64,000 nucleotides of DNA from a virus, in IMG/VR virus record IMGVR_UViG_3300037189_014399, positions 1 to 64,000 of that record. One strand, written 5' to 3'. Under the pieces are notes generated by a model. It saw nothing but the letters and a program-made list of their open reading frames with translations, ran no database searches and was not told the origin of the DNA. Of the stretch, positions 22,202 through 26,894 are shown one piece after another. Within the stretch, counting starts at the first letter, position 1; each line of letters opens with the position of its first letter. The translations under genes were made by a program, and so were the position numbers.

Positions 22202-22699
22202 TCATACACCCGCTGGATACTTTGGTCGAGCAATGCCCATGACTAGGGCGTACGAACGATGACGAAGAAATACGCCATCTCCGTTAGCCTGAGATCCTCC
22301 CGTATGGGACTCTCCTGAGGTGTTACCTTCGATAGTTGTAAGGGTGCCCTTACCATCATTTGATACAACAATACCCACATGCTCTGTGTCATTTGGGTTC
22401 TTGTCAAAATTAAAGAATACGATATCTCCAGCTTGTGCTTTACCTACTGGAACAATCTGCTTATTCTTTTGAAACCACTGGAAACCTGCATCGCATGACG
22501 CAAAGCCCTTCTTTGTGGATGCTGCCACTAGCGCAGACAATCCTGCTTCATCAAAACACTTAGAGACGAACATTGCACACCAAGGTTGGTGATTCATTCC
22601 GTACCAAGTACCAAAAATTGTGTCGTTATTTGTACCTTCTTTGTAGCCCTGATCAGCGTACTTCTTAGCTGTAGCTACTACTGTTGCGGCGTTCGCCAT
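22202..22699 (-). CDS. endolysin, CHAP-family amidase/peptidase
   Basis: PWCAMFVS (Cys), GDIVFF, HVGIV (His), TIEGNT. Confidence 0.9.
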   Translation of the reverse strand: MANAATVVATAKKYADQGYKEGTNNDTIFGTWYGMNHQPWCAMFVSKCFDEAGLSALVAASTKKGFASCDAGFQWFQKNKQIVPVGKAQAGDIVFFNFDKNPNDTEHVGIVVSNDGKGTLTTIEGNTSGESHTGGSQANGDGVFLRHRSYALVMGIARPKYPAGV

Positions 22700-23007
22700 G
22701 AGTGCTCCTCAATATGTTGTTCAAATTTTCCTTCAAGCTTAGAAACAGTTTGACTGATCTCTACTTGATTTGCCCTTAGCTCTTTTACTAAAGGAAGTAG
22801 CTGTAATTTTACTACATCTACCAGAGAGCTTCCGCCATTGTGTCGCAGCTCAGCGGCAACGTCCTTCATCTCTTCTTTGGCTCTAAGTGCATTCTCTTCA
22901 ATAACATGATGGATTGCTTTTTTTAACACGAACCAGATTCCTCCCCCTAGGGCTGCGGTTACAAAGAAATATGAGTAGACAATTGTTGCCCAGTCTGAAG
23001 CTGACAT
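22678..23007 (-). CDS. membrane protein of lysis cassette
   Basis: N-terminal TM, NGGSSL motif, coiled coil. Confidence 0.7.
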   Translation of the reverse strand: MSASDWATIVYSYFFVTAALGGGIWFVLKKAIHHVIEENALRAKEEMKDVAAELRHNGGSSLVDVVKLQLLPLVKELRANQVEISQTVSKLEGKFEQHIEEHSWRTPQQ

Positions 23008-23049
23008 CAGGACTCCCTATGAGATACAAATAATGTACATACTATGCCC

Positions 23050-23077
23050 TTGAATTTGTAATACGTAATGCTAAACT
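23050..23077 (+). promoter_or_regulatory. putative sigma-A-type promoter
   Basis: TTGAAT-N16-TAAACT with TG extended -10, in divergent gap. Confidence 0.45.
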
Positions 23078-23103
23078 GACCGTAACTACATAAGGAGAGA
23101 GAA

Positions 23104-24993
23104 ATAAAAGCACTGCGTCTATTCGCAGCATTATTCCTAGCACTTATTTCGGCACTATACCCAGTAATACTTTTAGAATCAGCGTACGGCGATGGGTCAT
23201 CCCTTAGCGCACCCAGACAGCTTCAAGTTGAAGTAAGTGATGGTGTAGTTAAACTTGAATGGGAAGCACCAGCACAAGGTACGGTAGAACGCTATGCCGT
23301 TTTCTTTGACTGTCCAACAGACTTTACTGGTTGTGGTCAAGGTTGGGCTATTCCTAGTGGCAATGGTGGCGACGCAAGCGCACTAAAGACAACTATGAAC
23401 ATACCTGTAGAGTTATTAAATTCTATAGTGCCTACAGCAACTATGTGGGATTTTAGAGTTAGAGCTGATAACGATACAGATCATCTTTACTCTCCACTTT
23501 CAAATGGAGTTAAGATCCGAATTGCTCCTGCTCCGGCTCCGAACCCAACCCCAACTCCGACTGCCACTCCTCAACCAAGTCCAACTCCCACATTAGATCC
23601 TCAGCCAAGTCCATCACCAAGTCCAACAAGTTCTCCGACTCCGTCTCCAAGCGCCTCACCCGAGGCATCGCAGACCAGTAGCCCAGCACCAAGCCCGACA
23701 CCAAGCCCAGAACCAACACCGCAATCAACTCCATCTGTTCATTCCTTTCCTGAAAATTCAGTACATTCTACTGGTGAAGAGTGGGGATCTATAACATTAG
23801 AGGCCCCAAGTAACTCCGTATTTACTAGTGTTTACTTTGCTAATTATGGACTGCCTATTGACTACCGTGCAAACTCAGAATGCTCTGCTGATGTGTCAGG
23901 CTATGTTGCTAATGCTTTTATAGGTAAAAGCGTTGGAACTGTAGACGTAACAAATGTAACAGCAAATGGCGATCCATGCTACGGCATTGGAAAGCACCTA
24001 TCAATAATTCTTATTTATGGTCCTGCTCCTCAGCCTACCATCCCCGTTGTTTCTTCCACACCAGCTCCTGCTCCAACCGATGCACCTGCGCCAGCGCCTG
24101 ATCCAATTCCTTCTCCAACACCTCAACCCGATCCTGTAGTTCCACCTCAACCACCGGTTGTTGTACCAGATCCTGTACCAGCTCCTGCGCCAGCTCCTGA
24201 ACCGGTGCCAGCTCCTGCTCCAGAACCTGCACCTGCTCCAGCACCTGAACCTGCACCTGAGCCAGCCCCAGAGCCAGCGCCAGAGCCTGCTCCAGCTCCC
24301 GAACCAGACCCTGAACCAGCTCCCGAGCCCGCTCCAGAGCCACAACCTGCTCCTGAGCCCGCTCCGGAACCACAGCCTGAGCCTGCGCCAGCCCCAGAAC
24401 CTGCCCCAGCTCCTGAGCCTGCGCCTGCACCCGATCCTGCTCCTGCCCCAGAACCCTTACCAATTCCTGAACCTGCTCCAGAACCTGCACCTGAACCTCC
24501 TCTAGTAAATGGACTTGTACCTAATAGTCCTGATCAATTACCAGAGGATACACCAAAGGAAGCACCAGAGGAAGTACTCGTTCCTCACATACAGGTTGAT
24601 AAACCAGGTGTAGAGAACGGTGGCATTGAGTTCTTTGGTACTAAGTCTCAACCTCAAGTAGTTCAGGAAGACGGAACGCTAACACCTCCGCCACCATTGC
24701 CTGGTTCAGGAGATCCAATTCCTCCTGATGCGATCACTATTACTGAAACCTTTATCGGACAACCAGGTGGAACTACATTCAATGCACCTGACGTTGCTGT
24801 CCCAGTAGAACCAATTGTTGTAAACATTGACATCCCAGGTGTAGGCGATGCAGCGCAAGCTGTTGCTGACGCCTATGTTGCATTGGCAAATATTGGCAAT
24901 GACATGAGTCCAGTTACCCGTAAGAAAGCTAAGAAGATTCTAGTTGCAACAATTGTTGCTTCTGGTATTGCCCAGTTAAGAAGGAGATTCTAA
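23104..24993 (+). CDS. surface protein: signal peptide, FN3, SUEL-type lectin, Pro-rich stalk, C-terminal anchor (probable ATA start)
   Basis: frame open 97 codons upstream of ATG 23395; AAGGAG-N6-ATA; KALR+hydrophobic+AYG; LxWEAP...FRVRAxN; ANYG...GK...GDPC...KHL. Confidence 0.75.
24160..24500 (+). repeat. coding (PA/PE)n low-complexity repeat
   Basis: degenerate CCN-GCN/GAR codon repeats. Confidence 0.85.
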
Positions 24994-25178
24994 TGAAAGG
25001 TCTATTACAAGATCTAGCTAATCAAATCTGGACCTTTGTAGGTCTATTTGCTGCATGGCTAGTACTAACCGGTAGCGCTAAGACAGTCGTAGGAGATGCA
25101 ATTCTTATTTCAGTCTTCCTATGGATTGCTACTTACCGTCTACGTAACCCTAAGGATAAAGATGAACAGACTGACTAA
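24993..25178 (+). CDS. small 2-TM membrane protein
   Basis: TAATG coupling; hydrophobic. Confidence 0.7.
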   Translation: MKGLLQDLANQIWTFVGLFAAWLVLTGSAKTVVGDAILISVFLWIATYRLRNPKDKDEQTD

Positions 25179-25452
25179 TACTATTGCCCGTATCTTTGCA
25201 GTATTTGCTGCATCGGGCCTATCAGTAATTGGAGCCGGCGCTCTTGCAGGTATATCAACTGTTAAAGCAATTATCATGGCTGGAATTACTGGTGTTGCAA
25301 CAGTTGTAGAAAGACTTGCACGATCATTTCTTGATGATGGAAAGCTAGACAAGCTAGAGATTGATGCTGCTTTCTCACAAATTGATAACAAGTCTTTGAC
25401 TGAGGAAGACCTTACCCTTATAAAGAAAAAAGGCCCGATCTCTCGGGCCTAA
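25162..25452 (+). CDS. 2-TM membrane protein with EF-hand-like tail
   Basis: ATG 25162; hydrophobic N-half; DDGKLDKLEID. Confidence 0.65.
   Translation: MNRLTNTIARIFAVFAASGLSVIGAGALAGISTVKAIIMAGITGVATVVERLARSFLDDGKLDKLEIDAAFSQIDNKSLTEEDLTLIKKKGPISRA
25431..25450. terminator. hairpin at convergent gene ends
   Basis: AGGCCCGA/TCGGGCCT preceded by A run. Confidence 0.6.
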
Positions 25453-25455
25453 TTC

Positions 25456-26646
25456 CTACTTCTTTATTCTGGATCTAAACTCTTGACCACGGTATAAAGT
25501 CTTACCGTCATCAATATGTACTAGCTCCACATGGAAAGAACCCTCTGGCTTGTAAGTAATAACAGATATGCCCTGTTGCCAGTTCTCGTAATAGGTGACT
25601 GGCTTACCATCAATACCAATTGATCCCTTAACACTAGGCACAGCACCGTCTACACGGCACAAGCAACCTGGTGAAACAGCCATAGATTTAATCTTGCCAA
25701 CACGATCAAATGTTGTGCGAGATTGAATCTCCTGGCGGTGGATGTGGCCAAAAATTGTAGACACATGAGGCATGTCATTGGTGTATCCGGCAGCAGTTGA
25801 TCCGTTAGAACGGACCTTGTCACCGTGAATAGCACGAAGCTTTTCATTAATCCAATGTGTGCCCGCTGGGTACGCATCTACATACTCAACCTCTAGCTCA
25901 TCCATACGAAGCAGATAAGGTAGAGACATGACTGGCCATGAATCTGGAATGTTTGCTCGCTTTAATCCAAATGCAGCCATAGCATTTAATGTTATGAACT
26001 TTTGCATTCTACGATCATGGTTACCTTCAAGAACAATGATCTTTGCATCAGGTGCTGCTGCACGCTGTTCTGCTAAGAACAAGTGTCCTTCATCAATAGC
26101 CATCTGAGCTGTGTGAGCAAAGTTTGCTTCCTGTTCGTACTTGCCATACATAGGTAAATCTAGATAATCTCCTAGGTTGACGACCTGATTTACACCTACC
26201 TCATGGTCTAGGTACGAAAGAATCTGTAGCGCAACATCCATCGCATCGTTATCATGGAATGGATCTACGGTTCCATCTTCGTAATAGCGGAATCCAATCT
26301 GTGGATCTGGGAGAACGACAGCTGTTTCCCAACCCTTTAAAGGAACTCTGCTCTTCTTATCAGAAGCTTTGATTACAGTTGGCTTTGCTTGTTGTACAAC
26401 AGGCCACTCTGGACCTGATTCCCATTTAGGATTAATTTGGAAACCAATTAAATCCTTTACCTGGAACTCACCATCTGCATCTTTTGCTGCAGCTTGATAC
26501 ATCTTGATCTTCTCAATAGAACCGATCTCTTCAAGATCGATGTTATTGCGATCAAGCATGTCACGAATTGCACCTAGAGCAGCATGCTTATTTACATCTT
26601 CTCTAAGGTTTTTAATCTTATCTCCTAAGCCTTCGGTTGAAGACAT
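25456..26646 (-). CDS. calcineurin-like metallophosphoesterase
   Basis: PDPQ, LGDYLD, EGNHD, IHG, FGHIHR motifs. Confidence 0.9.
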   Translation of the reverse strand: MSSTEGLGDKIKNLREDVNKHAALGAIRDMLDRNNIDLEEIGSIEKIKMYQAAAKDADGEFQVKDLIGFQINPKWESGPEWPVVQQAKPTVIKASDKKSRVPLKGWETAVVLPDPQIGFRYYEDGTVDPFHDNDAMDVALQILSYLDHEVGVNQVVNLGDYLDLPMYGKYEQEANFAHTAQMAIDEGHLFLAEQRAAAPDAKIIVLEGNHDRRMQKFITLNAMAAFGLKRANIPDSWPVMSLPYLLRMDELEVEYVDAYPAGTHWINEKLRAIHGDKVRSNGSTAAGYTNDMPHVSTIFGHIHRQEIQSRTTFDRVGKIKSMAVSPGCLCRVDGAVPSVKGSIGIDGKPVTYYENWQQGISVITYKPEGSFHVELVHIDDGKTLYRGQEFRSRIKK

Positions 26647-26894
26647 ATGCACTCCTTCATTCGATGCTTACGAATTGTTTCACTTGAAAAATCTACACTT
26701 ATTGTCTTTAAGAAATTCATAATTTCTTTTGAAGTCATAGGTGTATCAAAGAACAAAGCATTAACTTCTTTCTGATCTTCTTCAGAAAGTTCATTCATCC
26801 ACCAGCCTACTTTGCATAGTTTGGTTTCAAGAATTACATGCTCTTCTTTGTATTTAGCTAAGGCCTCAGCAATTTTCATTAAGGCATTCTCCAT
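26625..26894 (-). CDS. hypothetical protein (HTH-like, C...HR...CxC)
   Basis: ORF track. Confidence 0.65.
   Translation of the reverse strand: MENALMKIAEALAKYKEEHVILETKLCKVGWWMNELSEEDQKEVNALFFDTPMTSKEIMNFLKTISVDFSSETIRKHRMKECICLQPKA

Follow-up and report, generated by a model that had tools for sequence, protein, structure and literature searches.

The stretch of virus DNA analysed here (the window) comprises 64,000 nucleotides, positions 1 to 64,000 of IMG/VR record IMGVR_UViG_3300037189_014399, and thus the opening 64 kb of a virus record that is complete (104,858 bp) and has direct terminal repeats. Our subject is an intact gene on its + strand (23104-24993), called the stalk gene below, which is predicted to encode an exported lectin on a proline-rich stalk, which stands immediately upstream of two small membrane genes (g2 and g3) and whose apparent start codon is ATA. 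The signals around this start and the parts of the encoded protein lie as follows.

23050..23077, + strand: promoter candidate, TTGAAT, 16 nt and an extended −10 element TGcTAAACT; read from the sequence and present once only in the window
23092..23097, + strand: Shine-Dalgarno (SD) sequence AAGGAG, 6 nt before the start; the ATG of g2 has an identical SD and spacing (24981-86, 24993)
23104..23106, + strand: ATA start codon of the stalk-lectin gene; aligned codon in homologues, identical in a read-based contig, unique in the genome
23104..23190, + strand: predicted signal peptide, residues 1-29, with a predicted cut after SAYG; assigned by inspection, with n-region, h-region and small residues at −3/−1 kept in homologues
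23113..23128, + strand: 5-bp hairpin (CTGCG, 6 nt, CGCAG) in codons 4-9; found by scan, with covariation, and part of the minimum-free-energy fold
23209..23523, + strand: FN3 domain, residues ~36-140; AlphaFold2 (AF2) model and Foldseek
23524..23736, + strand: linker rich in P, S and T; read from the translation, with a predicted local distance difference test score (pLDDT) below 50
23737..24024, + strand: SUEL/rhamnose-binding lectin domain, residues 212-307; profile, fold and motifs
24025..24501, + strand: proline-rich rod, mostly (PA/PE)n; read from the translation
24502..24990, + strand: conserved membrane-proximal domain with a C-terminal helical hairpin (the tail); alignment, BLASTP and AF2

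The frame of the stalk gene follows an in-frame TAA at 23083-85 and is open from 23086 to the TAA at 24991-93. Between 23086 and 23395 it holds no ATG, GTG or TTG, the first of these being the ATG at 23395, codon 98 counted from ATA. By our estimate, which assumes uniform codon use, ~100 codons without stops, or without the three usual starts, would each arise by chance with a probability below 1%. The open frame and the AAGGAG 6 nt before ATA 23104, both described in a first-pass annotation made from the letters alone, were reproduced from the sequence; since the spacing to the CTG of codon 4 is 15 nt, this SD suits ATA rather than CTG, and ATG 23395 has no preceding SD. Translation from ATA yields I-KALR, a 19-residue hydrophobic core and SAYG, then D. 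A start at 23395 would cut the FN3 domain, as the annotation had argued, because Met98 lies inside the modelled fold, which spans residues ~38-139. Across the 104,858 bp of the genome, this is the sole long open reading frame (ORF) in which a strong SD and an ATH codon lie far upstream (97 codons) of the first canonical start. The ATA is also reproduced, with zero differences over 22900-23466, in an independent Logan contig assembled from public reads (run X1, depth ~16, which may be the sample from which the virus record itself came).

Comparison with related cassettes strongly supports ATA as the start of the stalk gene. A protein search returned ~200 relatives; 70 loci were fetched from viral contigs (IMG/VR) with the protein and 77 more with g2, and the start codon was read at the aligned first position of the signal peptide. 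The N-termini of the relatives, M-K/R-x-L-R-L-F-A-A-L, align with that of the window, whose N-terminal 140 residues share 84% identity with those of locus L007. Among 68 distinct cassettes, the start codon is TTG in 41, ATA in 15, ATG in 6, GTG in 3, ATT in 2 and ATC in 1, and in all 68 a GGAG-type site precedes it by 5-9 nt. In the 15 distinct ATA cassettes, the codon falls at the same place in the codon alignment of homologous signal peptides, and at three loci (L011, L054 and L041) a stop codon lies immediately 5′ of ATA, so that no upstream start is possible there. Because it recurs at the aligned position and is preceded by a stop codon at these three loci, ATA is, on this comparison, a conserved weak start and not an error.

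That the ATA reflects an error of sequencing or assembly, or a recent mutation that inactivated the gene and left it dead or starting at CTG codon 4 or ATG 23395, could be argued from the great rarity of ATA starts, from the behaviour of gene callers, which open the ORF at 23395, and from the closest database protein (P0004), which is also called from an internal ATG. We regard such an error as very improbable. The read-based contig is identical, the 15 ATA cassettes differ from each other at many other sites and three of them have a stop just before the codon, the SD is spaced for ATA and not for CTG, ATG 23395 has none, and upstream of 23395 the frame codes for a conserved signal peptide and for half of an FN3 domain that folds well in the model. 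The first-pass annotation had named an ATG in homologues as the sign of an error or recent mutation; ATG occurs in just 6 of the 68 distinct cassettes, which contradicts that reading, and ATA occurs in 15. Many database members (P0004, P0011, P0027, P0032, P0038, P0058, P0084 and P0101) begin inside or just after the signal peptide, and automated calling seems to have trimmed the genes whose true start is a codon other than ATG, GTG or TTG. The family would thus be systematically misannotated, with gene callers truncating it and many entries left without a signal peptide.

The distribution of start codons suggests that weak starts are under selection, with TTG, ATA, ATT or ATC placed behind a strong SD in about nine of ten cassettes. 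ATG is the start of g2 and g3 in most loci and of 59 of the 83 window genes found by a crude caller. On a tree of the stalk 3′ part together with g2, ATA requires at least seven state changes. Each of the six ATG rows is a single tip, and ATA clades last over 0.1-0.3 changes per site, so that ATG looks like a short-lived intermediate between TTG and ATA. AUA, AUU and AUC are non-canonical for initiation factor 3 (IF3); for a phage murein hydrolase they gave 5-7.5% of the level reached with AUG, and nutrient limitation and guanosine tetraphosphate (ppGpp) hit non-AUG starts hardest (PMC5499595). The low-level expression proposed in the annotation agrees with this conservation of weak non-ATG starts. 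In bacteria and phages, initiation at a conserved AUA is a great rarity, and AUG is avoided here in ~90% of the 68 distinct cassettes; a family that swaps TTG, ATA, ATT and ATC offers a natural setting in which to study the selection of weak starts.

The annotation had also given the cassette a promoter of its own. A consensus promoter scan of the window did not flag the candidate at 23050-23077, and its extended −10 part is kept in related loci, with TG(C/T)TAAACT found 23-28 nt before the start in the window and in L007, L011, L054, L024, L043, L049, L057 and L066. In ~20 other loci, TGnTATAAT is found 34-44 nt before the start.

The 5-bp hairpin that begins 9 nt after the ATA start adds a second element to the start region. 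Over 20 distinct sequences, 100 of 100 pair cells hold standard pairs, and the covariation comprises a G:C to A:U exchange in 4 sequences, at the cost of Ala to Val, and a U:A to C:G exchange in 1 sequence, at the cost of Leu to Pro. None of 500 shuffles reached the observed value, and slid partners pair at 20-56%. Conservation of this hairpin as an RNA structure is suggestive rather than proven. A lower helix, in which the start codon pairs with a downstream TTATT, was predicted in the window and dropped, as it is not kept across loci. In a clade with TTG starts (L026, L029, L038, L042, L051, L067, L068, L098, L100 and L106), the SD GAGGGG is enclosed within a perfect hairpin, ATTCC-GAGG-GGAAT, 2 bases before TTG, which may be a second means of throttling the stalk gene. 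Everything in the start region, as read by comparison, points to throttled initiation.

The domain order that the annotation had read from the translation (signal peptide, FN3, linker, SUEL lectin, proline rod and hydrophobic/basic tail) is borne out by modelling and alignment. A cleavable signal peptide is predicted to direct export of the product, which the hydrophobic/basic helix at its C-terminus would keep anchored. An AF2 model of residues 30-309 consists of two domains with pLDDT ~90, and the FN3 and lectin folds are both confirmed at the level of these models. The FN3 domain has many Foldseek matches with probability 1.0 and template modelling (TM) scores, normalised to the target, of 0.6-0.79. 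The lectin model, with pLDDT above 90 over most of residues 219-307, matches SUL-I (5h4s) at 31% identity and latrophilin lectin domains at a target TM of ~0.7. A Pfam check of the extended ORF was less clear-cut: the window sequence has no match to fn3 (PF00041) and scores 15.3 bits (E = 0.027) against a cut-off of 31.4 for PF02140, whereas the homologues P0016 (34.7) and P0012 (33.6) pass the PF02140 cut-off and P0074 reaches 26.7 bits against the fn3 cut-off of 25. A scan with the lectin domain of the single protein returned only its nearest relative, and a profile built from 4 phage lectin copies matched SUL-I 5h4s (E = 5e-29), CSL3 (E = 1e-14) and RemA (E = 1e-13) in the PDB. In the lectin alignment (A3), Y37, G38, D79, P80, C81 and K86 are invariant and C49 and C81 are the only cysteines. 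E15, Y37, N73, D79, G83 and K86 presumably correspond to binding residues of CSL3, a likeness that is not used as evidence here. The motifs of the SUEL family are YGR, DPC and KYL (PMC10817417); the window lectin keeps ANYG(L), GDPC and K-H-L, with the R of YGR replaced.

Beyond the lectin, the (PA/PE)n rod runs for ~190 residues and leads into the tail, whose 163 residues, the last of the protein, are its best conserved part. In a 31-sequence alignment the tail shows 65-83% identity to the window and 52 invariant positions, and by BLASTP its identity is 56-85% across all 70 loci. It contains the conserved motif ANIGNDMSP(I/V)TRKKAKK, and its hydrophobic segment is flanked by the basic clusters KKAKK and RRRF. 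The AF2 model of the tail (pLDDT 72.7) consists of an extended proline-rich stretch followed by helices 114-133 and 137-162; the ESM Atlas gave no usable match for it. The heads of relatives carry PA14 domains, other lectin arrangements, a coiled coil or Ala-rich helices instead, with the domains shuffled among them. From such exchangeable heads (SUEL, PA14, FN3) it may be possible to learn which surface glycans are important in hosts that have not been cultured.

The neighbours of the stalk gene place it in a lysis module, the remaining features of which are these.

24993..25178, + strand: g2, 61-amino-acid membrane protein with two hydrophobic helices; 16 invariant columns
25162..25452, + strand: g3, 96-amino-acid holin-like membrane protein; PHROG matches, kept after g2 in nearly all loci
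22678..23007, − strand: orf109, N-terminal membrane helix and helical body, divergent from the cassette and assigned to the same lysis module by synteny
22202..22699, − strand: endolysin of 165 amino acids, CHAP domain only, without a wall-binding domain; phrog_21357 E = 8e-63, Pfam CHAP E = 4e-12
25431..25450, − strand: GC-rich hairpin with a T-run on the minus strand, between convergent genes; found by scan

The two small membrane genes that the first-pass annotation had placed behind the stalk gene are present, g2 at 24993-25178 and g3 at 25162-25452, the latter starting at 25162 and not at 25096. The stalk stop overlaps the g2 ATG (TAATG), and the codons of the terminal RRRF (AGA AGG AGA TTC; 24981-24995 region) supply the AAGGAG ribosome-binding site of g2, so that this end of the tail may be constrained at both the protein and the RNA level. 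g3 matches phrog_26427, an uncharacterised phage family (E = 4e-22), and, weakly, the holin family phrog_443 (E = 0.005). The order stalk, g2, g3 is found in nearly all loci, and in most of them a CHAP-type endolysin follows on the same strand; in the clade of the window, the endolysin and orf109 lie divergently upstream instead. orf109 overlaps the start of the CHAP endolysin and has no Pfam family; in L002, L004, L006, L012 and L070 a homologue of it immediately precedes the stalk gene and shares its strand. Among the 77 further loci found with g2 alone as the query, the stalk tail lies directly before g2 in 74 of the 74 with enough upstream DNA. By this synteny, the stalk gene is the conserved first gene of a lysis cassette.

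Actinomycetia phage DSL-LC01 (OQ999401, Dishui Lake; L154 4778-5303) carries a g3 homologue of 51% identity and a 60-amino-acid gene right behind its ribonucleotide reductase, without a stalk gene, so g3 can occur without the stalk, and g2 was never found so. The cassette opposes its neighbours, as the annotation had stated, and the terminator that it had assigned to the cassette is better placed elsewhere: the hairpin at 25431-25450, which falls within the 3′ end of g3, is preceded by an A-run and has a T-run on the minus strand alone, and so looks like the terminator of the convergent metallophosphoesterase gene (25456-26652, − strand) rather than that of the cassette.

We consider the stalk protein to be, on balance, probably a lysis accessory or regulator that engages envelope glycans, started at ATA and encoded first in its lysis module. 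The protein would be exported and anchored by its tail beside g2 and g3, with a rod long enough to cross the wall and the lectin and FN3 domains at its tip. With the same SD and spacing as the ATG of g2, the weak start would yield little stalk protein and much g2 and g3, and stalk output would depend on how strictly the host IF3 acts against non-AUG starts. Because AUH starts are rejected by IF3 and hit by nutrient limitation and ppGpp, the ratio of stalk protein to g2 is expected to be low and dependent on the state of the host. Given a conserved tail and an exchangeable head, the tail would serve a common function with the holin-like proteins, working in or at the membrane with g2 and g3, and the head would make a host-specific contact by binding a rhamnose- or galactose-containing glycan of the host envelope. 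The stalk protein would in this way connect what happens at the membrane during lysis with the glycan layer beyond the wall.

More specific roles can be put forward only tentatively. The stalk protein might be a helper that loosens or releases the glycan layer when the cell lyses, as a third step like those of spanins and LysZ; we hold this possible without favouring it outright and rate it slightly above a low-copy regulator or sensor of holin triggering, which is doubtful. Still less do we expect the start, SD and hairpin to form a translational gate that reads initiation fidelity (IF3, ppGpp and growth state) and sets the ratio of a glycan-sensing regulator to the holin, an idea that we consider a long shot. 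If it were true, both the physiology of the host and whatever the lectin head encounters on the cell surface would tune the timing of lysis, and the system would be a lectin-based sensor of lysis timing without a described counterpart.

Several observations weigh against a lysis role. Fully extended, the rod and linker (~190 + 75 residues) would by our estimate span ~50-80 nm and exceed any wall, so that outward reach, as in adhesion, fits their length better than a purely wall-internal role. The C-terminal hydrophobic segment (24937-24978) is 11-14 residues long across the family, which is unusual for a membrane-spanning anchor, and fold searches with the tail returned only generic helical hairpins (Z ≤ 6), so that no solved fold explains it. 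Contact of the tail with g2 or g3 is putative. The stalk protein and LysZ (Corndog gp75) have no sequence or profile similarity (hhalign probability 0.1; BLASTP). An extended −10 promoter of the host type may point to expression early, and not late, in infection. As for the start region, the hairpin stem sits in the conserved peptide motif LRLFAA, and its conservation is therefore partly at the protein level; the tree draws on the 3′ part of the stalk gene, the 5′ domains of which are shuffled, and recombination could inflate the counts of start-codon changes.

Two other explanations compete with a role as a glycan-engaging lysis accessory. The first-pass annotation had proposed that the cassette is independent and displays the lectin so as to mask the receptor, exclude superinfection or avoid grazing, and a self-contained accessory lectin that merely adjoins the lysis genes could indeed mask receptors (excluding superinfection or protecting progeny from debris), mediate adhesion or deter grazers. 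The heads are hypervariable and domain-shuffled (FN3, SUEL, PA14 and coiled coil), as expected of a protein that tracks host glycans, the gene has a host-type extended −10 promoter of its own, the rod is longer than the wall requires, the family is almost confined to phages, and many accessory genes of Gram-positive phages sit beside lysis genes. We nevertheless judge display unlikely, and receptor masking as first proposed is not supported, though adhesion or exclusion through a variable lectin head keeps some likelihood. The conserved part of the protein is the membrane-proximal tail and not the head, g2 always has the stalk tail upstream (74 of 74) and overlaps the stalk stop, and the order with a holin-like gene and an endolysin is kept across the family. 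Selected weak starts are also hard to square with covering an abundant wall glycan; stoichiometric masking of such a surface glycan is disfavoured because translation appears to be deliberately weak.

The same pairing and the same weak start could instead belong to a low-copy, antiholin-like timing regulator, the tail holding g2 or g3 inactive, the lectin head reporting a surface signal, and the weak start and hairpin setting the ratio. The lower translation expected relative to g2 despite an identical SD and spacing, the start-proximal hairpin with its covariation, the obligate pairing with g2, the presence of two holin-like genes in the cassette and the response of non-AUG starts to IF3 and ppGpp (PMC5499595) would all suit such a regulator. 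Its commonest start, TTG, is however only moderately weak, and there is no known signal for the lectin head to report. We know of no antiholin with a 600-residue lectin ectodomain, and we think this role distinctly unlikely. The glycan-engaging accessory remains the reading that we prefer.

Comparison with known systems places the stalk protein among several partial likenesses. Wall-spanning proteins of Gram-positive bacteria of the LPXTG type, such as M protein and protein A, combine a signal peptide, tip domains, a proline-rich wall region, a hydrophobic segment and a basic tail. The stalk protein shares the signal peptide, tip domains, proline-rich region, hydrophobic segment and basic tail, but its C-terminal 60 residues hold no LPXTG or LAXTG, its segment of 11-14 residues has basic clusters on both sides, and it is phage-encoded and almost absent from cellular genomes. 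Lysis regulators such as lambda S107/S105 with its sdi hairpin and T4 RI offer another parallel, the lambda S ratio being set by dual starts and a hairpin. Like these, the stalk protein is a membrane protein of a lysis cassette whose amount relative to the holin is predicted to depend on how translation starts, through the choice of start codon and a hairpin close by; unlike them, it is the product of a separate large gene and not of a dual start of the holin gene, and its regulatory effect is putative. The lectin domain has the fold of SUEL/rhamnose-binding lectins (SUL-I 5h4s, CSL3 2zx0 and Flavobacterium RemA 8gl6) with the ANYG and GDPC..K.L motifs, and differs from them in having two cysteines rather than eight (four disulfides), in standing as a single domain on a stalk and, in the window, in scoring below the Pfam cut-off. 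With u-spanins the protein shares a C-terminal helix and the position in the cassette, but it lacks a lipobox and has no Cys near the cleavage site.

Extra lysis proteins of actinophages (LysZ/LysY) deal with membrane-anchored glycopolymers, and LysZ, a membrane protein of the lysis cassette, is needed to overcome them (bioRxiv 10.1101/2025.06.24.661397). The stalk protein resembles LysZ in its Pro-rich linker, C-terminal helix and cassette position, and its lectin head would suit membrane-anchored glycopolymers. LysZ, however, is small (146 amino acids in Corndog) and consists of a membrane helix at the N-terminus and a helical body, an architecture nearer to that of orf109; the window stalk protein has no helical body, though relatives such as P0005 have an Ala-rich one, and its N-terminal segment looks cleavable. 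The architecture of orf109 recalls LysZ, with no sequence similarity to Corndog gp75. At the level of initiation, infC (which encodes IF3) and other genes with conserved AUU/AUC/AUA or UUG starts likewise keep a non-AUG start behind a good SD and have a low output that depends on the state of translation (PMC5499595). The stalk gene differs from infC in encoding a phage envelope protein, in having no known feedback loop, in the interchange of ATA, ATT, ATC and TTG, and in the hairpin that follows its start.

By database search, the stalk family is almost phage-only and undescribed. Its tail occurs in 3 of ~186,000 species genomes. A search of 1.84 billion cluster representatives gave 58 clusters at E ≤ 1e-30, and the ~120 clusters of a wider set have just the terminal helices in common with the tail. 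A tblastn search of cultured phages gave no match to the C-terminal domain, and the match of P0013 to DSL-LC01 is limited to an FN3 segment. As an obligate partner of a small membrane protein, such a putative wall-spanning lectin would add an undescribed component to the lysis cassettes of abundant freshwater actinophages, which fits recent evidence for extra actinophage factors against envelope glycopolymers.

Elsewhere, the window encodes a tail sheath, baseplate proteins, a family A DNA polymerase, helicases, a ribonucleotide reductase and the CHAP endolysin. A megablast search with 10 kb of the window found no match in cultured phages, and an Rfam search found nothing within the window. 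The host is likely a freshwater actinobacterium, because the nearest sheaths are those of ~113-kb Streptomyces myophages (36% identity) and because two of the three cellular-genome contigs in which alone the stalk family is found are labelled as Actinomycetota metagenome-assembled genomes. It is reasonably probable that the window belongs to a ~105-kb myovirus-type phage of freshwater Actinomycetota with the stalk gene opening its lysis module. The tRNA genes of the genome include no special initiator and no Ile tRNA able to read AUA; the only ones present form a tight trio, Gln-CTG, Gly-GCC and Asn-GTT (L156 18355-18580; genome ~102.35-102.58 kb).

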